This document shows, piece by piece, positions 47,672 through 57,464 of a stretch of 64,000 nt of DNA; the first letter of the stretch is position 1; every line of letters starts with the position of its first letter. The translations under genes were made by a program, and so were the position numbers. The DNA is from Vampirovibrio sp. (lineage in GTDB: Bacteria > Cyanobacteriota > Vampirovibrionia > Vampirovibrionales > JAJTHC01), in contig JACEUU010000002.1 in NCBI GenBank assembly GCA_024998755.1, positions 76,783-140,782 on the forward strand. The letters are read 5' to 3'. Under the pieces are notes generated by a model, which had not been told where the DNA came from, did no database searches, and saw only the letters and a program-made list of their open reading frames with translations.

Positions 47672-48865
47672 ATGATTTATTTGGATTTTGCGGCTACCAG
47701 CCCTGTTCACCCCGAAGTTTGGGAGACAATGACCCCCTACGCCTTGGCAAATTTCGGCAACCCAGCTAGCCAACATGAACTGGGACAGTCTGCGAAAATA
47801 GCCTTGGAACAAGCTAGAACGACGCTTCTTCATTTACTAGAGTCTATGCAAGAAACGCATCAACTACTGTTTACTTCTGGGGGAACGGAAGCCAATAACT
47901 TAGCTCTTCAAGGGGTGGTTCGCAACTGGTGGAAGGAACATCCTGAAGCTAAAAAACCGCCGCACCTTGTTATTTCAGCGATAGAACACGCTGCTGTGTT
48001 TGAAGTAGCCCAATGGCTTGCAGCACAACACTGTATTGATTTAACGGTACTTTACCCCCACCCTGAAAACGAAGGATTAATAACCCCTGAACAAGTAGTG
48101 GAAGCCTTAACCCCTGAAACGATTCTTTGTTCCATTATGCACGCCAACAATGAAACAGGGGTACTTCAACCAATTGAAGCGATGGTAAAAGCAGTGAAAG
48201 CCCATCTGCCTAGCTGCTTATTTCATTGTGATATGGTGCAAACCATTGGGAAAATGCCCATTAATTTAACCCAATTACCCGTTGATTTTGCCACCGCTTC
48301 AGGGCATAAATTTCAAGCCCCTAAAGGGTGTGGCTTTTTGGTGTGTAGCCCTGCAGGGTTTGAAGCCCTAGCCCCCATCACCTACGGCGGTGGGCAAGAA
48401 TTTGGGCTTCGTCCCGGAACAGTATCGGTTGCGAATGCTGTAGGGTTGGCGTCGGCTTTAACCCTTAAGCATAAAACGCTGTCAGAAAACCCTCTCCACT
48501 TAAGTAGGCTAACGACTTGGTTAATTGAGCAATTACAAACCACGTTTGGTGCTATGGGCGAAATTAACACACCGTTAAACCCTGAACACAGGTTAGCTGG
48601 TATTGTGAATGTTTCATTCGCATCCCATTTAGGTGAAAAACTGGTGCTAAAGTTAGATTTACGAGGCATCTGCGTTTCTTCGGGGTCTGCTTGCCATGCA
48701 GGGCTAGCAGTAGAACCTTCAAAGGTTTTATTGGCAATGGGAAAACAGAAATCTATCGCTGAAAGTAGCATACGGGTTTCAATGGGAGCCTCCACGACCC
48801 AAGCAGAACTACACACTTTAATGGAAGCCCTCCAGGCCATCATCCAAGTGAAAGATAAGTCGTGA
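47672..48865 (+). CDS. Class-V aminotransferase-fold cysteine desulfurase (NifS/IscS-like).
   Basis: PLP-lysine motif SGHKF and the active-site loop SSGSACHAG. Confidence 0.7.
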   Translation: MIYLDFAATSPVHPEVWETMTPYALANFGNPASQHELGQSAKIALEQARTTLLHLLESMQETHQLLFTSGGTEANNLALQGVVRNWWKEHPEAKKPPHLVISAIEHAAVFEVAQWLAAQHCIDLTVLYPHPENEGLITPEQVVEALTPETILCSIMHANNETGVLQPIEAMVKAVKAHLPSCLFHCDMVQTIGKMPINLTQLPVDFATASGHKFQAPKGCGFLVCSPAGFEALAPITYGGGQEFGLRPGTVSVANAVGLASALTLKHKTLSENPLHLSRLTTWLIEQLQTTFGAMGEINTPLNPEHRLAGIVNVSFASHLGEKLVLKLDLRGICVSSGSACHAGLAVEPSKVLLAMGKQKSIAESSIRVSMGASTTQAELHTLMEALQAIIQVKDKS

Positions 48866-50142
48866 AATTTAACGCAAACTCACCCGACCGCTACAACGAC
48901 TTCAAAAAAGCTGTGGTTACAGATTTAGACGATACGTTATTACCCAAACGCGAAGGTGAAACTGGCAAACTAACACCCTACTTACCTAAAACAACGCAAG
49001 ATTATTTATCAATTGAAAACAATTCTTTTCCTGCCAATGTAGCATTGATTGGCTCTACAGGTAGAACGGCAGAGTCTGCTGGTAAATTAGCCAAACAAAT
49101 TGGGAAAGAAACGCTTAATAGTGTTCGCCCATTGGATGGGTTAATGGTGCTAAACGGGGCGTCTCTCTACTTGAATGCAGACAAAGACCATAATGGAGCC
49201 CCCTACCCCAATGCAGATTTTTTCCAGAAAGTAGGCAAGCATCAACTACCCGCTTTCATACCTTACAATACCTATTTAAAAGAAAAAAACACTTCCGAAA
49301 ATGCTGAAGTTTGGGCTTCCACTGAATTAGTAAACAAGGTATGCCAGTGGCTGGTAAAGTCTGCAGATAAGAAAAACCTTACTTTTGAAGAAATTGAGAA
49401 AGAAACGCCTGTATTTTCTGAAATTGCTGAGAACATCAAACAAAACAGAAGCGACGCCCCAGAAATTATTCGGTTATTGATAGCAACGGTTGTTCGTCCA
49501 GCTGACAGTAAAGAGGATGTATCCCATCAATTTACGATAATTTTCTTTAGCGATGGGGATGAAGACATTGACCCCAAACCAATGATTATAGCCCTACCAG
49601 CCAATAATGAGGAAAACACCCTTTATAAAACTAACGATTTTGAACGAATAGAAGCATCCGTATTATCCGCTTTTAAGAAGTTTACGGTGGGCTATGATGA
49701 AACCGAAGGTGCTTACCCTCAAGCCGAAGTGGGATTAAACCAAAAACGAACGCCCCTTAAAAATAATAAGCACTATGGAATGGCAAACCTCACCAACCGT
49801 TCTTACATTGAAGCCACACCTTACAATAAAAGCCAAGCCGTTGCAGCTTTATTGGCAACTTTATTACCCAATGTAGTGCGGGTTGTAACAGCGGGCGATG
49901 CAGACAACGACTTGAAAGCTTTATTGTCATCAAACTACTCCATCAATGAAGGCCGAATCGTTCCCAATAGCGGGGTAGCCATCAAGTTACTAAAGGGTAA
50001 AAATTTATCATTTTTAGAAAAACTAGGGTTGACTGAAGATTCAGATATAGATGGTTATAGCGATGACCGACCCCATATCCAGCTACAAGTTCCTGAAACG
50101 TGGGCTGAAGGCATTCAAAAAGCGTTAGAAATAGAAGCCTAA
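48862..50142 (+). CDS. HAD-superfamily (subfamily IIB / Cof-like) hydrolase with a large cap insertion.
   Basis: Motif I VVTDLDDTLL and motif IV TAGDADNDLKAL. Its GTG start overlaps the upstream TGA stop (GTGA). Confidence 0.55.
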   Translation: MKFNANSPDRYNDFKKAVVTDLDDTLLPKREGETGKLTPYLPKTTQDYLSIENNSFPANVALIGSTGRTAESAGKLAKQIGKETLNSVRPLDGLMVLNGASLYLNADKDHNGAPYPNADFFQKVGKHQLPAFIPYNTYLKEKNTSENAEVWASTELVNKVCQWLVKSADKKNLTFEEIEKETPVFSEIAENIKQNRSDAPEIIRLLIATVVRPADSKEDVSHQFTIIFFSDGDEDIDPKPMIIALPANNEENTLYKTNDFERIEASVLSAFKKFTVGYDETEGAYPQAEVGLNQKRTPLKNNKHYGMANLTNRSYIEATPYNKSQAVAALLATLLPNVVRVVTAGDADNDLKALLSSNYSINEGRIVPNSGVAIKLLKGKNLSFLEKLGLTEDSDIDGYSDDRPHIQLQVPETWAEGIQKALEIEA

Positions 50143-50181: not shown

Positions 50182-51012
50182 CTATTTTCGATAAATTGAA
50201 ATCAATGGTAAGCTAGGGGCTTTTTCTTTGATGAGCTGTTCAATATGATCCGCTTCCGTTTCGGAAATGGTTCGTAATTGTTGACTTTTCACTAGCGGTT
50301 CACTGTGGTTACCGCGTGAATCTACCACCCATTCCATCGGGTACGGACGCTTAGGCGTGTTCAGCTGAACTTCATCAGGAGCAATTCTAGCAATTAAACT
50401 GGTTAAGGCATCCACATCTTCCGTATTGGTGGGCATAAACATACATTGCAACGAAAGTTTGCCTTTGTACACCTGCCGAAATGCTTCAATACCGCTAATA
50501 ATCCCCTCAAGAGAAATACCCTCAACAGGTCTATTCATCCGCTGAAGGACGCTATCGGTTGCAGCATCTAGCTTGCACGCTACTTGGTCTGCTAGCCTTA
50601 AATCTTGTTGAACGGCAGGATCGTTTAACAAGGTGGCGTTGGTTAACACCATTACGGGCTTGCCAGTATAGTCTTTTATAAACCGAATCACTTCCCCTAA
50701 GTTCAACGCTAAAGTGGGTTCGCCATTACCGCTTAGGGTAATAATATCGGCTTTTTCCCAATCGCTTAAGCGTAAGTCTCGTTCCAATTTATCGGTAGAA
50801 ACATATATAGCCCGAGTGGCGGTTTTTAGCTGAATATCGCCTAATTGGCAGTAAACGCAATTAAATGAGCAAGTAGAAGTATTCAACAATAAATCTATCC
50901 CAAGAGACCACCCTAACCGCCATGAATGGACTGGTCCGTAAACGGAAGACTCAAACCCTCCGTTGGATGCGGGTTTTTCAGCATTTTGAATGCTATCTGC
51001 AATGGTCATCAT
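50182..51012 (-). CDS. Radical SAM protein.
   Basis: CSFNCVYC (CxxxCxxC) and a GNGEPTL glycine-rich SAM motif. The real start ATGATG is at 51012; the track ORF extends artefactually across the tRNA. Confidence 0.6.
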   Translation of the reverse strand: MMTIADSIQNAEKPASNGGFESSVYGPVHSWRLGWSLGIDLLLNTSTCSFNCVYCQLGDIQLKTATRAIYVSTDKLERDLRLSDWEKADIITLSGNGEPTLALNLGEVIRFIKDYTGKPVMVLTNATLLNDPAVQQDLRLADQVACKLDAATDSVLQRMNRPVEGISLEGIISGIEAFRQVYKGKLSLQCMFMPTNTEDVDALTSLIARIAPDEVQLNTPKRPYPMEWVVDSRGNHSEPLVKSQQLRTISETEADHIEQLIKEKAPSLPLISIYRK

Positions 51013-51071
51013 GAAAGAAAACGTGCTTTCGTTTAGGTAGACAGAAACGGCACAAAATAAAAAGGGCGTTA

Positions 51072-51148
51072 CTACCAATGATGGGGCGGCTGATGGGAAT
51101 TGAACCCACGAATGCCGGTACCACAAACCGGAGCCTTAACCACTTGGC
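51072..51148 (-). tRNA. tRNA-His (anticodon GTG) with an encoded G-1 and the CCA end.
   Basis: Cloverleaf folded by eye: G-1 plus a 7-bp acceptor stem, anticodon arm ccggt-TTGTGGT-accgg, T-arm gtggg-TTCAATT-cccat, discriminator C and CCA. The 3' half resembles E. coli tRNA-His. Confidence 0.8.
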
Positions 51149-51397
51149 TACAACCGCCACATCGTTGATAGTAACGCTCAACACCTTTATTTATAACCAA
51201 AACATGGTAGGCGTGCAAGTGTTTTTTGAAATTATCCCAAAGTTTCCTGAATTTTATGATGTTGTTGTCTCTATGGCAGTCTTCTGCTTGAAGCTTAAGC
51301 ATTTCTAGGGTAAAGTTTTATAAGCGTTATTTTATTTTCCCATACTTATTTCCCGTATTAACGTGTTTCTTATTCTAACTGGCACGTTAACAGCATA

Positions 51398-52690: not shown

Positions 52691-53212
52691 ATGCTGATTC
52701 ACCCCCCCCATACCCAGCACCCCCTATCTATTTGGTTAGCAGCTAAAAACATTCAATTGCTAGCGACTGATGTTGATGGCGTTTTAACGCCTAGCACCAT
52801 TATTTGGGATGCGAATCGAACTGAACAAAAAGTGTTTAATGTGAAAGATGGCTTGGGCTTGCGTCGCATACGGAAAATTGGCGTGAAAACAGCGATTATT
52901 ACCGGCAGACAAAGCGATATTGTTGATTTGCGAGGTGCGGAATTGGATTTCGATTTTATTTACCAAGCAGTCCCTGATAAATCGGTGGTGTTGGATGAGT
53001 TATTGGCGAAAACAGGTTTAACCCTTGCAAAAGTGGCTTATATGGGTGATGATTTGCCTGATTTACCCGTGCTTAAGCGTGTGGGTTTAGCGGTTTGCCC
53101 TGCAGATGCTCCGTTGGAAGTACAACGCCATTGCCATTGGGTGGCACCCTTAGCAGGGGGTGAAGGGTGTATGCGGGCGTTGGTGGATTTGATTCAATCC
53201 GCCCAAGGTTAG
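52691..53212 (+). CDS. kdsC: 3-deoxy-D-manno-octulosonate 8-phosphate phosphatase (HAD-IIIA).
   Basis: DVDGVLT motif I, GDDLPDL motif III and a size of ~173 aa. Confidence 0.7.
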   Translation: MLIHPPHTQHPLSIWLAAKNIQLLATDVDGVLTPSTIIWDANRTEQKVFNVKDGLGLRRIRKIGVKTAIITGRQSDIVDLRGAELDFDFIYQAVPDKSVVLDELLAKTGLTLAKVAYMGDDLPDLPVLKRVGLAVCPADAPLEVQRHCHWVAPLAGGEGCMRALVDLIQSAQG

Positions 53213-53270
53213 TAAGTTCAATAACGGTTGTGATATGATGATATCATCCAGTTTAGCTTTTTAATAAAGG

Positions 53271-54458
53271 ATGCAGATCACGTTGGGAAATACCACCTTA
53301 TTAAACCGTGTTTTACCTTGGGAAACGCTTTCAGCCATTGTTCAAGGCGAATCTGTTGTTGATTTATCGACCATGCCCATACGGTCTGCCCAAGAAGCGT
53401 ATCGCTTTGTACAGGGCTATGGGTATGATTTACATAACCCTGCGGATGCACAAGATGTTAAGCACTTGCTTCATCAAGTCTTTCATTTTATGGAAACTTC
53501 GTTACTGCGTCCTCGTGTAGGGGAAACAGAATTTTCTGAACTACGACTAGCTATTCCTGAAGGGCTCAAAAAACGGTGCGATGTCATTGAATTGCTTTTA
53601 TTAGCTTCCCAGCCCACTAAAAGCACTGCTAGCTTGTGGTCTTGTGCGTTTTTGAAGGTATTACATACGTTGGTTCATATTGAAAATGCCCCTAAAATTC
53701 AGTATGCCCATTTGGCTCAAGACCAAATTTGCAAGCAGTTTAAGGCATATTTGTATACAGAAAAATATACAGGTAGTTTGATGTTAGGCAACCCCAATGG
53801 GGGTTCTCAAAAACAGCTCAAGCTGGTAGCAGTTGATTTCAAAACAATGAAAAGCAGAGATAGCTTGCTGATTAAATTGCTTTCTAAAAAAACCAATATG
53901 ATGGATGAAATTGATGATTTAATTGGCTTTAGAATTGTAACGGAAACCCCTGCTGATGTGCTTTTAGCACTCGATATTTTGCAGGAAAACCAACAAATGG
54001 TGTTTACCAACATTAACGCCAACAGGTCGAGAAATTCGCTTATTCAGTTGGAAGATTTTAAGCAAATTTGGGAACTTTTTGCTCATCCTACGGATATTCA
54101 AGATTTATTGCCTACCCATATTCAAAGTTGGGATGAATTGGTAACCAATTTGAAGCAGTTAAGCCAATCGGAACAACCGTCTATTCCTAACCTCACGTTT
54201 CAGGCACATAACCCGATGAGTGCGTCTGATTATCGTTCGTTACACATTACTTGCCGGCATTTGTTGCGGTTGCGTAGGGTGGGCAGCACGAAGGATGAGC
54301 GGGTGTTTTTTCCGTTTGAATTGCAGTTTTTGGACAAGGAAACGTATCTAAAAAACCAAGAGGGTGATACGGCTCATACGCAGTATAAACACAGACAATT
54401 GGTGCGTAGCCGAAGGCGGGTATTGGGGGCCTTGTTGCCAAGGCATTTCCATAATTAA
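53271..54458 (+). CDS. RelA/SpoT-homolog (RSH) synthetase-fold nucleotidyltransferase of unknown function. It carries ~180-aa N-terminal and Arg-rich C-terminal extensions.
   Basis: G-loop-like KTMKSRDSLLIKLLSKK, then DLIGFRIVTETPADVLLALDIL (compare RelA DLxAxRII..DCY) and a downstream E-L-Q motif (compare EIQIRT). Confidence 0.5.
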   Translation: MQITLGNTTLLNRVLPWETLSAIVQGESVVDLSTMPIRSAQEAYRFVQGYGYDLHNPADAQDVKHLLHQVFHFMETSLLRPRVGETEFSELRLAIPEGLKKRCDVIELLLLASQPTKSTASLWSCAFLKVLHTLVHIENAPKIQYAHLAQDQICKQFKAYLYTEKYTGSLMLGNPNGGSQKQLKLVAVDFKTMKSRDSLLIKLLSKKTNMMDEIDDLIGFRIVTETPADVLLALDILQENQQMVFTNINANRSRNSLIQLEDFKQIWELFAHPTDIQDLLPTHIQSWDELVTNLKQLSQSEQPSIPNLTFQAHNPMSASDYRSLHITCRHLLRLRRVGSTKDERVFFPFELQFLDKETYLKNQEGDTAHTQYKHRQLVRSRRRVLGALLPRHFHN

Positions 54459-54571: not shown

Positions 54572-55870
54572 TTAATTGATAGGTGGCTTTAAATATTTCT
54601 TGCCCAACAACGCTTCGGGCATAAAGGTTTGAGGCACGTCAGGGGCATCATGCGAATAAACGTACCCAGCCCCATGCCCTAAGGTTTTCGCCCCCGAACA
54701 ATGCCCAGACCGCAAATGGAGCGGCACAGGGAACGCCTTGCCACCCGTGGTAACATCCGCCAACGCTGCATCCAACGCCTTATAAGTCGCATTGCTTTTA
54801 GGGGCTTTCGCCACATACGCCGTAACCATCGCCAACGGAATACGGGCTTCAGGCATACCCAGTTGTTCGACGGCTTGTAAGGCGTGCGAAGCCAACACAA
54901 AGGCTTGAGGGTCTGCCAACCCAACATCTTCCGCCGAACAAACCAACAACCGCCTAGCAATAAACCGAGGGTCTTCACCGCCAGCTATCATTTTCGCAAG
55001 CCAGTAGAGTGCCGCATCAGCATCAGACCCCCGAAGGCTTTTTTGAAACGCCGAAGCGTGGTCAAAATGGTCGTCTGCCCCTTTGTCATACGAAAGTCGT
55101 GTTTGGTGCTGGGCTAAGGTTTGAAAGACTTCCAACGTTAGTAATATTTCCGTCCCTTTTTCTGATTTTTCAACCCGAGGAGCCACCCAAAAGCCTGCCT
55201 CTAATAACGTCAACAACGCCCTTGCATCGCCATTAGCGTACTGCACCAAAAATTCTAGGGCATCTTTTTGCAGCAGACAAGTGCCTTGGTTGGCAGCATT
55301 TAAGGTGTGGAGCGATTTCTTCACCAGCTGACGCAAATTTTCGGTGGATAAAGCTTCCAGCTTAAATAACAATACCCGAGAAAGGAGGGCTTTGTTGACC
55401 GAAAAATAAGGGTTTTCCGTGGTGGCACCCAATAGTACGAACGTCCCTACTTCCACATGGGGGAGTAACGCATCCTGCTGAGATTTGGAAAATCGGTGGA
55501 TTTCATCGAGGAATAAAACCGTGCGTTGTTGCTGGTATGCCAAGCGTTGGGTGGCATCTTCCACGCAAGCCCGAATCTCCTTGACGCCGGCGGTAACGGC
55601 ACTGAGCGAAACCCAAAAATAACCTGATTTTTGCGATAAAAGCCGAGCCAGCGTGGTTTTTCCCACCCCTGGTGGCCCCCATAGAATGAGGGAGCGTAAT
55701 TGCCCTGAATTAGCCAGTTGCCGTAGCGGAGCGGTTTCTCCGTGTAGGAGGGATTCTTGCCCCAACACATCTGCTAGGGTTTTGGGGCGTAGCAAATCTG
55801 CCAGCGGTCGAGCAGTGAGGGAACAATCATCCGTGGCGGCTTGGGTTTGCTGGTAGCTAAATAAATCCAT
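54572..55870 (-). CDS. rarA: Recombination factor RarA/MgsA (AAA+ ATPase).
   Basis: Walker A GPPGVGKTT, sensor motifs and the MgsA C-terminal domain, ~430 aa. Confidence 0.8.
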   Translation of the reverse strand: MDLFSYQQTQAATDDCSLTARPLADLLRPKTLADVLGQESLLHGETAPLRQLANSGQLRSLILWGPPGVGKTTLARLLSQKSGYFWVSLSAVTAGVKEIRACVEDATQRLAYQQQRTVLFLDEIHRFSKSQQDALLPHVEVGTFVLLGATTENPYFSVNKALLSRVLLFKLEALSTENLRQLVKKSLHTLNAANQGTCLLQKDALEFLVQYANGDARALLTLLEAGFWVAPRVEKSEKGTEILLTLEVFQTLAQHQTRLSYDKGADDHFDHASAFQKSLRGSDADAALYWLAKMIAGGEDPRFIARRLLVCSAEDVGLADPQAFVLASHALQAVEQLGMPEARIPLAMVTAYVAKAPKSNATYKALDAALADVTTGGKAFPVPLHLRSGHCSGAKTLGHGAGYVYSHDAPDVPQTFMPEALLGKKYLKPPIN

Positions 55871-55948: not shown

Positions 55949-56497
55949 TTAGGACAGATGCTTCTTTTTCTTTTTTGACGATTTGTTTTTTTTAGGGTCA
56001 TAGAACCATAAAAGGAGACTAAAAAAGCCCACCACAACGCTAGCCCCAACTACTAAACAGAAATCAAACAGAGCATCTTTCTCGCCTCCCTCTGTATAAG
56101 GATCTAAAAATGCGTGCAGGTTATCATCGCTAACGTAAACCGTAAAAGAAGCGTTGCTAGCAAACCTTGTTTTCAACATCGTTTCAGCTTCATCTTTTTC
56201 AATACGATGCCTAATAACTACTTTTGTTTTTTTGCAGGCTTGTATGGCATTAGACGTACCGTCAATTTTTAACACTACGCAAGGGTTATAATAAGTACGA
56301 GAATGTTTGCTACCAACCGTAATTTTGGATATAGACTCTCCTACTTTAGTGAATGAGGTAATTTGCTTAAAATACTTTGAGTCTTTTTCTAGGATATACT
56401 TTTGAAACAGTGTGTAGCTAAAGTAAATCAAAATAACCGCAAATAATGCAGACCATAAGAAGAATCCTTTAAAAACCATTTTCTCTGTTATTTTCAT
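55949..56497 (-). CDS. Small membrane protein (DUF3592-like: TM, beta domain, TM) with a poly-Lys tail.
   Basis: Hydrophobic segments at both ends and a KKKKKH C-terminus. Confidence 0.4.
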   Translation of the reverse strand: MKITEKMVFKGFFLWSALFAVILIYFSYTLFQKYILEKDSKYFKQITSFTKVGESISKITVGSKHSRTYYNPCVVLKIDGTSNAIQACKKTKVVIRHRIEKDEAETMLKTRFASNASFTVYVSDDNLHAFLDPYTEGGEKDALFDFCLVVGASVVVGFFSLLLWFYDPKKNKSSKKKKKHLS

Positions 56498-56513: not shown

Positions 56514-57464
56514 TTAATACGCAGGGATTGCCCTTCGCACGAATGCCCGAAACTGCCAGTGGCGTTGGGTGATTTCCAACGTCAACCATTCATCATTCTT
56601 GGCAAAACTATGAAACGTGGGGCGGGCATAGGTTTCATTCTTCCTAGCACGGAAATTTTCCACAACCGTCAACTTCCCCCACTGCTGGTTATAAGTTGAA
56701 TACTGTTGCGTCGGCACTGGCACGGTCTCAAACCGCTTTTCCCCAGCAATAAAGGTTTTTTCATCAATAGGAATCACCGCCATCACCTTGCCCATGTTAA
56801 TGAGGATTAAGACATCAATCGGTTTCTGCATCGCCTTTTGCTGAGCCAAATTTTTCGGCTGATGGTTCTTCGCCTCACTCAACCCTTTGGGTTTATAAAT
56901 GGGCGATTCCACTTGCCGTGCCCCTGCCCCTTGCTTCATCGCTTGGGTTTGTTGGGCATTGCTTTTAGCTACATCCGCTTTCAGCTGATTCAAATTCGTG
57001 TTGAGTGAGCCATCTTGCCACTGCCCCAACTTCACTTGGTAAAACCCCTTAGGTACAATCGTCTTGCCTAGTTTAACATCCGTAACCAACATCCCTAACG
57101 CATAAGGCGTGTAATTATGACGAAGGTATTCGGCGGAAGCTTCTAAATCCAGATCTTCAAAATGGCGTTTGTCCGGCAACCAGTATTCTTGAATACGATC
57201 ACCTTCTTTAATACCCGACTTCATTTCGCTACTTTTTTCGTCTTTCCAGTCATACTTATACCCCAAGGTTCCCCTGTTATAGGGTTCATCTTCCCAAAAA
57301 TCGGGCTTTTGAAAAATCGGGTCGACTGCTTCATTATCTGTCGAAAAACAAACCCCTTGCCCCCAAACAATCATGCTAAAAAGCAGAAAAAATCCAGCCC
57401 CTAGCAACCGCCAGCTTGTGGCAGTTCGGCAGGTTTTCCGGTTAGTTGTTGCCGATTTTGCCAT
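56514..57464 (-). CDS. Hypothetical secreted protein.
   Basis: Signal-peptide-like N-terminus. The start is uncertain because the ORF overlaps the rpe 3' end by 64 nt. Confidence 0.4.
   Translation of the reverse strand: MAKSATTNRKTCRTATSWRLLGAGFFLLFSMIVWGQGVCFSTDNEAVDPIFQKPDFWEDEPYNRGTLGYKYDWKDEKSSEMKSGIKEGDRIQEYWLPDKRHFEDLDLEASAEYLRHNYTPYALGMLVTDVKLGKTIVPKGFYQVKLGQWQDGSLNTNLNQLKADVAKSNAQQTQAMKQGAGARQVESPIYKPKGLSEAKNHQPKNLAQQKAMQKPIDVLILINMGKVMAVIPIDEKTFIAGEKRFETVPVPTQQYSTYNQQWGKLTVVENFRARKNETYARPTFHSFAKNDEWLTLEITQRHWQFRAFVRRAIPAY

Follow-up and report, generated by a model that had tools for sequence, protein, structure and literature searches.

A candidate chromosomal RelA/SpoT-homolog synthetase with a family-specific N-terminal domain in Vampirovibrio sp.

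The window analysed here is a 64-kb stretch of the Vampirovibrio sp. contig JACEUU010000002.1 (64,000 nucleotides, positions 76,783 to 140,782 of the forward strand). Between the gene for a KdsC-family phosphatase and the gene for the AAA+ ATPase RarA/MgsA it contains a complete open reading frame (ORF), which encodes a protein of 395 amino acids (aa) and ends with a stop codon. An initial annotation of this DNA had placed the ORF at the same coordinates and with the same length, and had described its product as a divergent RelA/SpoT homolog (RSH) with a synthetase fold and long extensions, possibly an alarmone synthetase or a toxin. RSH enzymes form the core of bacterial stress signalling. 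The small RSH proteins differ in their chemistry, which can be the synthesis of (p)ppGpp, the synthesis of (p)ppApp or the pyrophosphorylation of tRNA. The coordinates of the ORF, of the domains and motifs of its product and of the two flanking genes are collected in Table 1.

The stop-to-stop frame of the ORF opens at position 53268; therefore no earlier start codon exists and an upstream extension is impossible. A partial copy of the gene with 90% identity is found in a Melainabacteria metagenome-assembled genome (MAG) from Lac Pavin (L001). Comparison with this copy gave a ratio of nonsynonymous to synonymous substitution rates (dN/dS) of 0.09 over 345 codons, which confirms the ORF as a genuine gene on which purifying selection acts strongly. 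The GC content over the gene is slightly lower (0.38-0.42) than in the flanks (0.43-0.51), and no island-like GC discontinuity is seen around it. A scan of the locus for promoters and terminators gave nothing that exceeds the shuffled expectation.

Table 1. Features of the RSH-like gene, its product and the flanking genes (positions are those of the window)
Feature	Position	Strand	Evidence
KdsC-family HAD phosphatase gene, upstream, same strand, 58-bp gap	52691..53212	+	TIGR01670, 130.5 bits (cut-off 106.95)
Whole ORF, TIGR04552/TIGR04562 member	53271..54458	+	TIGR04562 283.2 bits and TIGR04552 280.6 bits, full length; dN/dS 0.09
Family-specific acidic all-helical N-terminal domain, aa 1-160 (boundary approximate)	53271..53750	+	
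Most conserved helix of the N-terminal domain, TASLW123sC125afLKvlH132TlvH136IE (aa 119-138)	53625..53684	+	Conservation in 219 members
RSH synthetase (SYNTH) core, aa 161-395, basic	53751..54455	+	
Syn1, ATP-phosphate-binding motif, K191-TM-K194-SRD-S198-LLI-K202-LLS-K206	53841..53888	+	Aligns with RelSeq K243/S247/K251 and with RelP
Syn2, D216-LIG-F-R221-IVT, with the putative Mg2+-coordinating catalytic Asp	53916..53942	+	D216 = RelSeq D264
Basic motif after Syn2, F-x-N247-x-x-x-x-R252-S-R254-N255-x-L-I	54003..54044	+	N255 in 218/219, R252 in 192/219, R254 in 177/219 members
Variable insertion, aa 259-313 (~55 aa), two helices and a low-confidence loop	54045..54209	+	Splits the Pfam match in two
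Putative acceptor-binding loop and strand, N314-PMSASD-Y321-RSL-H325-I-T327-C-R329 (canonical GYxSxH)	54210..54257	+	Conservation in 219 members
Syn4, catalytic motif, F-P348-F-E350-L-Q352-F-L-D355 (canonical P-x-E-I-Q-I-R-T)	54309..54335	+	E350 = RelSeq E323, Q352 = RelSeq Q325
Terminal helix, A-H369-TQ-Y372-K373-HRQLVRS-R381-R382-R383-VLGAL	54372..54434	+	AHxxYK aligns with Rel AAHWxYK
RarA/MgsA AAA+ ATPase gene, convergent	54572..55870	-	Pfam MgsA_C, 190 bits

The initial annotation had proposed to check its reading by the Pfam family RelA_SpoT (PF04607) and by structure prediction. The Pfam match is significant (40.9 bits against a gathering score of 27, E=2.7e-10); it falls in two stretches, the better of which covers aa 193-247 on profile positions 3-56. 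RelA_SpoT is likewise matched at E<=10 by all 47 sequences of the homolog alignment that was used for the Pfam scan of the family and for the structure model, with a best value of 1.2e-10. Two NCBIfam profiles match the protein over their full length, TIGR04562 (aa 16-385 on profile positions 1-355 of 356; curated cut-off 140 bits) and TIGR04552 (aa 15 to 385; curated cut-off 125 bits). Both matches have E~1e-84 and score about twice the curated cut-off. According to these profiles, the protein is a typical member of TIGR04552/TIGR04562, a named but uncharacterised family, and the resemblance of its motifs to those of RSH synthetases lies far above chance.

The 82 homologs obtained in a phmmer-type search share one length class, cover more than 90% of the query and are labelled by JGI and NCBI merely as "TIGR04552/TIGR04562 family". 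When 1.84 billion cluster representatives were searched exhaustively with a profile, 881 clusters (formed at 50% identity) were matched at E<=1e-3, 298 of them at E<=1e-30. The representatives of nearly all 881 clusters are 340-480 aa long and have a single full-length match. The window protein does not differ in length or architecture from these homologs. The two-domain layout, in which the initial annotation had seen a possible fused or novel regulatory architecture, is thus to be regarded as the standard one of the family. The main texts of the RSH classifications of Atkinson 2011 and Jimmy 2020 describe no subfamily with such an architecture or taxon range. Relatives are present in 566 species-level genomes, as found through one peptide pattern. 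Among the best 80 of these, the nearest belong to the Vampirovibrionales/Melainabacteria (33-90% identity), and others to the Sericytochromatia, the Vulcanimicrobiota/Eremiobacterota/UBP9, the Oligoflexia/Bdellovibrionota, the Myxococcales and Kiloniella. These relatives point to a genome of the Melainabacteria/Vampirovibrionales type as the most likely source of the window. Two family representatives are over-long. P0187 (679 aa) carries C-terminal PolX-type HHH_8 and HHH_5 domains and is the single occurrence of this kind. In P0195 (721 aa), the family part is followed by a segment resembling a signal peptide and by a tail like that of outer-membrane proteins, and read-through in the gene call is the probable cause. 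Fusion partners were considered as clues to the function, and both cases proved uninformative.

The AlphaFold2 model of the protein is confident, with a mean predicted local distance difference test score (pLDDT) of 88.6 and a predicted template modelling score (pTM) of 0.85. In the model, aa ~17-158 are all helical and aa ~161-395 form a mixed beta-sheet with flanking helices, aside from a stretch of low confidence at aa ~260-320. The top Foldseek matches in the PDB are exclusively RSH synthetases (RelP, RelQ and the N-terminal domains of Rel; E~1e-4). The model has the alpha/beta fold and the beta-sheet of nucleotidyltransferases, with the catalytic residues D216 and E350 in place. It can be superimposed on solved RSH synthetases, of which Rel, RelQ and RelP resemble it more closely than CapRel or Tas1 do. 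The central proposal of the initial annotation, a divergent protein of the synthetase fold whose N-terminal region is not of the RSH type, is therefore supported both by the Pfam match and by the predicted structure.

All of the RSH motifs quoted in the initial annotation are found in the protein (Syn1, D216-LIGFRIV of Syn2 and F-E350-L-Q352 of Syn4), although two of its assignments have to be corrected. The segment KxxKSxxSLxxKL, taken there for the G-loop, is the ATP-phosphate-binding motif Syn1, and the Arg-rich C-terminus, described as an extension, is the last helix of the SYNTH core (aa 368-388 in the model), in which the AHxxYK motif is followed by the family-conserved RRRVLG. In the profile alignment with PDB sequences, K194/S198/K202, D216 and E350/Q352 fall on the RelSeq residues listed in Table 1, R221 falls on RelSeq R269, and A-H369-xx-Y372-K373 corresponds to AAHWAYK. 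Residue conservation was counted in 219 full-length members of the family, most of which are less than 50% identical to one another. K194, K202, D216, E350 and Y372 are kept in all 219 members, G219, N255 and N314 in 218, Q352 in 215 and R221 in 213. The acceptor-stacking tyrosine Y321 is kept in 201 members, or in 218 if F, H and W are counted too. In the terminal helix, H369 is found in 210 members, R383 in 216 and R381 in 187. The Lys/Ser/Lys of Syn1, the Asp-x-x-Gly-x-Arg of Syn2, the stacking Tyr and the Glu-x-Gln of Syn4 are thus all present, and those of them that align with the RelSeq residues have a conservation of 97-100%. The small RSH protein FaRel2 is inactivated by substitution of the Mg2+-coordinating Asp or of the acceptor-stacking Tyr (Y128) (bioRxiv 10.1101/2021.04.30.441581). 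The invariance of the catalytic residues in the family favours an active pyrophosphokinase over a pseudoenzyme.

The N-terminal region, described in the initial annotation as ~180 unrelated aa, is indeed a family-specific non-RSH domain; its length is rather ~160 aa, with an approximate boundary. No Pfam match to these ~160 aa was obtained in any of the 47 members, and none of the PDB sequences is matched by a profile built from the domain. No fold relatives were found with a model of the isolated domain (pLDDT 79.7), in which the last helices are straightened. The possibility that the domain is a degenerate HD domain (pseudo-hydrolase), as in RelA, was considered and rejected. None of the 47 members matches HD_4 at E<=10, one of them has a noise-level match to HD_3 (E=0.22), the PDB chains of Rel, SpoT and Mesh1 are not retrieved with the domain profile, and no fold similarity is seen. 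As the isolated-domain model has straightened the last helices, a very remote kinship with HD domains is possible. The domain is acidic across the family (median pI 5.3, charge -7), in contrast to the basic catalytic half. Its most conserved helix carries W123 (213 of the 219 members), C125 (211), H132 (215) and H136 (189), all on one face, which may bind a metal or a ligand or else contribute to the acceptor pocket.

The identity to RelQ (SAS1) and RelP (SAS2) of the Firmicutes, two housekeeping small alarmone synthetases (SAS), is only 13-18%, and the window protein differs from both by the additional ~160-aa N-terminal helical domain and by a ~55-aa insertion. The allosteric motifs of RelQ, KXKXKXXR, EFVT and LAMNFWAT (PMC10434055), are not evident in the protein by inspection. 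The HD, TGS and ACT layout of the long RSH enzymes (Rel/RelA/SpoT; B. subtilis Rel 8acu, RelSeq 1vj7) is absent as well: none of the 47 members has a significant Pfam match to an HD, TGS or ACT domain, and the window protein ends at aa 395. The one characterised SAS with an accessory domain is the chromosomal DsRel or SAS-TPR (Tde-SAS of Treponema denticola), whose catalytic domain is N-terminal and whose C-terminal TPR domain acts as a brake (PMC10434055). The accessory domain of the window protein is N-terminal and gives no TPR match, and an identity with DsRel was rejected on account of the opposite domain order and the missing TPR signature. DsRel is a functional precedent for regulation by an accessory domain, not a relative.

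We consider it rather probable that the protein is an active, stand-alone chromosomal pyrophosphokinase of the SAS type, which uses a nucleotide acceptor, produces (p)ppGpp or possibly (p)ppApp, and has the N-terminal domain as a built-in regulator. The catalytic mechanism proposed here rests on homology. The basic C-terminal half would bind ATP-Mg2+ through Syn1 (K191/K194/S198/K202), D216/R221 and E350/Q352, and an acceptor nucleotide that stacks on Y321 would receive the beta,gamma-pyrophosphate at its 3'-OH. The likeliest acceptors are GDP and GTP, which would give (p)ppGpp. ADP and ATP are possible acceptors too, leading to (p)ppApp, because the acceptor site is partly remodelled. From the high pTM, the two halves are expected to be packed into a single globule, and the acidic helical domain at the N-terminus is most plausibly a regulatory or sensor module that gates the activity.

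Several observations weigh against the assignment as a nucleotide-dependent SAS. The pyrophosphotransfer activity and its product are predictions, and the regulatory role of the N-terminal domain is suggested by the architecture and by the charge complementarity of the two halves. The other points concern the acceptor side, which, judging from the aligned residues, is partly remodelled relative to canonical (p)ppGpp synthetases such as RelQ and RelP. At the position of the His of GYxSxH (325), Gln is found in 138 of the 219 members, His in 55, including the window protein, and Lys in 23. The Arg-Thr of the canonical EIQIRT is replaced by x-Asp355, giving E-x-Q-x-x-D, with D355 in 212 members. 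The acceptor region is divided by the ~55-aa insertion between Syn2 and the acceptor loop, which was overlooked in the initial annotation; its length differs across the alignment, and the pLDDT is 55-80 over aa 260-320. Further basic residues, R252/R254, R329 and R381-383, are conserved in the family, and the motif with R252/R254/N255 may replace the canonical "PK" segment, which binds the acceptor phosphate. Finally, the catalytic half is strongly basic across the family (median pI 9.46, charge +7). In the study of FaRel2, basicity of the surface close to the active site was correlated with tRNA, and not nucleotide, acceptors (bioRxiv 10.1101/2021.04.30.441581).

A basic catalytic half with a remodelled acceptor site and additional Arg residues would also suit a pyrophosphokinase of RNA or tRNA 3' ends, with the chemistry of FaRel2, PhRel2 and CapRel, that serves as a non-toxic chromosomal regulator of translation. 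The RNA backbone would then be bound by the basic half together with the Arg-rich terminal helix, and the acidic N-terminal domain would mask this surface until a signal is received. We regard this alternative as unlikely.

The genes surrounding the family gene in the window are of a housekeeping type. The position between kdsC and rarA given in the initial annotation was confirmed by the family matches of both neighbours (Table 1). Further upstream on the same strand, genes for a cysteine desulfurase, a HAD-family protein and an LL-diaminopimelate-aminotransferase-like enzyme are found, while a radical-SAM protein and tRNA-His are encoded on the opposite strand. Beyond the RarA/MgsA gene lie the genes for two membrane or secreted proteins without annotation, followed by that for ribulose-phosphate 3-epimerase. 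These two ORFs between rarA and rpe (55949-56497 and 56514-57464, reverse strand; 182 and 316 aa) have predicted N-terminal hydrophobic segments and belong to no Pfam or NCBIfam family. The ORF of the radical-SAM protein (50182-51157 region, reverse strand), with its TTG start at 51126, overlaps the tRNA-His gene (51082-51157, reverse strand), and its true start codon must therefore be located further downstream. This protein matches no equivalog above cut-off, its best matches being weak ones to MoaA and viperin-like proteins. At 48862-50142 on the forward strand, a 426-aa HAD-IIB-like protein is encoded, which has a long insertion between the HAD motifs and shows split weak matches to Hydrolase_3 and sucrose-6F-phosphate phosphohydrolase. 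No second RSH-like gene was found within the 64-kb window.

The search for a conserved antitoxin or functional partner gene gave nothing that is shared across clades. The ORFs of 81 loci containing the family gene were clustered after an all-against-all BLASTP comparison, and no neighbour family common to different clades was obtained. The sole neighbour cluster present in more than 18 loci consists of antisense ORFs inside the family gene itself, and next in size comes a cluster in which generic signalling proteins (CHASE2-PP2C, histidine kinases and sigma54 regulators) are chained by single linkage. The annotated surroundings of four distant members are all different. The statement of the initial annotation that no antitoxin gene is adjacent holds, as neither a small partner ORF nor a neighbour conserved across clades is present. 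The kdsC/rarA arrangement recurs only in part and only in L001, where rarA adjoins the gene (the rarA side was compared), and no KdsC-family gene was found beside the homologs in other clades.

Synteny is limited to the level of clades. In Vampirovibrio, the gene lies among secDF, gatD/murT, the gene for a penicillin-binding protein (PBP) and glyS, with a small secreted protein also encoded there. In Pseudocolwellia it is accompanied by ffh and an ammonium transporter gene, and in other clades by other housekeeping genes. In Oligoflexus, a redoxin-like gene is located upstream in divergent and a CHASE2-PP2C gene downstream in convergent orientation. The redoxin/AhpC-like and CHASE2-SpoIIE (PP2C) flanks are consistent in Oligoflexus and related Oligoflexia (L086 and L087, and the Oligoflexus loci L030, L042, L068, L072 and L080), and they possibly reflect a regulatory link, within what is synteny at the clade level only. 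Two loci, L005 (DATNQC010000183.1) and L011 (DATNPJ010000043.1), come from MAGs labelled Oculatellaceae and Coleofasciculaceae, respectively, yet show synteny of the Vampirovibrio type; they are probably Vampirovibrionales contigs that were binned with cyanobacterial genomes.

The gene was also searched for on mobile elements and in defence systems. PADLOC gave no significant match (best PDC-S33, E=0.019) and PHROGs gave none. No copy of the family gene was found on plasmids or among the 2.9 million viral contigs of IMG/VR. The single match in a phage collection (L081) lies at positions 113534-134622 of MW495066.1, a record of 273,876 bp entitled "Microcystis phage MaAM05, complete genome". 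This stretch holds engB, glyS, gatD, the PBP gene, secDF and acpS and matches a MAG of Vampirovibrio chlorellavorus over 18.3 kb with 92.8% identity. From these housekeeping genes and this identity it follows that the record is likely to be mislabelled bacterial DNA; it looks like a chromosome fragment of the predatory bacterium that was deposited as phage. Carriage of the family gene by phages was rejected accordingly, the lone match being to apparent Vampirovibrio chromosomal DNA and IMG/VR being empty. The family gene has no conserved partner and no mobile context.

These results bear on the suggestion of the initial annotation that the protein is a toxic SAS (toxSAS) or a phage-defence protein of the CapRel type. 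Such a protein would be a single-gene fusion of toxSAS and antitoxin, with the N-terminal domain as an autoinhibitory sensor that is freed by a phage protein. The presence of two modules, one of them an RSH catalytic module, without a separate antitoxin gene had been the argument for it, and within one molecule the acidic half and the basic half could pair in the manner of an antitoxin and its toxin. The conserved two- or three-gene operon with an antitoxin by which toxSAS such as FaRel, FaRel2, PhRel, PhRel2 and CapRel are recognised (PMC7229694) was, however, not found in the 81 loci. Unlike CapRel and the toxSAS FaRel2 and PhRel2, the gene lacks a neighbouring antitoxin gene, lies neither in a defence island nor in a mobile context and gives no significant PADLOC match, and it occupies syntenic positions among housekeeping genes. 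The domain order is also the reverse of that in Salmonella CapRel (7ztb), which has an N-terminal toxSYNTH domain and a C-terminal pseudo-zinc-finger antitoxin; the window protein ends with the terminal helix of the SYNTH core and lacks a zinc-finger-like C-terminal domain. The low dN/dS gives no sign of diversifying selection of the kind that sensors typically show, and the fold is nearer to Rel, RelQ and RelP. We therefore consider a CapRel-like defence function very improbable; most likely, the gene is chromosomal, is passed on vertically and lies outside any toxin-antitoxin or defence module. The least probable of the alternatives, a catalytically dead RSH-fold pseudoenzyme acting as a nucleotide-binding sensor or scaffold, would fit the very low similarity to canonical RSH proteins, the lack of a phmmer match in the PDB and the split Pfam match, but dead RSH domains typically lose the Mg2+ ligands and other catalytic residues, whereas these residues are kept in 97-100% of the 219 diverged members, and D216 and E350 in every one of them. 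The probability that remains lies with other acceptors or functions.

The literature on TIGR04552/TIGR04562 consists of incidental mentions. In the member from Bdellovibrio sp. NC01, a small indel reached high frequency in one evolved population during experimental evolution (PMC9888234). The Myxococcus xanthus member MXAN_4858 adjoins the glt G1 gliding cluster; transposon insertions in it are viable and cause a mild aggregation or developmental phenotype that resembles that of glt mutants (bioRxiv 10.64898/2026.08.28.747804). No publications linking Vampirovibrio with ppGpp, or Bdellovibrio with small alarmone synthetases, were found. A broader interpretation, which we put forward as speculative and doubtful, is that TIGR04552/TIGR04562 constitutes a distinct RSH class, in which a unique acidic sensor gates a basic, remodelled site that takes as its acceptor not GDP or GTP but an RNA or tRNA 3' end, an adenine nucleotide or another nucleotide. 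Such a class would act as a non-toxic chromosomal switch, concentrated in lineages with many predatory, gliding or developmental bacteria (Vampirovibrionales, Bdellovibrionota/Oligoflexia and Myxococcota) and thereby tied to these ways of life.

For the annotation of the window, the outcome is an ordinary chromosomal member of its family and neither a toxin-antitoxin nor a defence locus. The existence of the family will be no surprise to specialists; its orphan N-terminal domain, its chemistry and its unusual taxon range make it a reasonable target for biochemistry. The analysis places the organism of the window among the carriers of an RSH family with an intact catalytic centre, a partly remodelled acceptor site and an N-terminal domain without known relatives. 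The product and the regulation of this family, once defined, would extend the functional map of the RSH superfamily, and they could explain growth control in the non-photosynthetic relatives of the cyanobacteria and in several predatory lineages.

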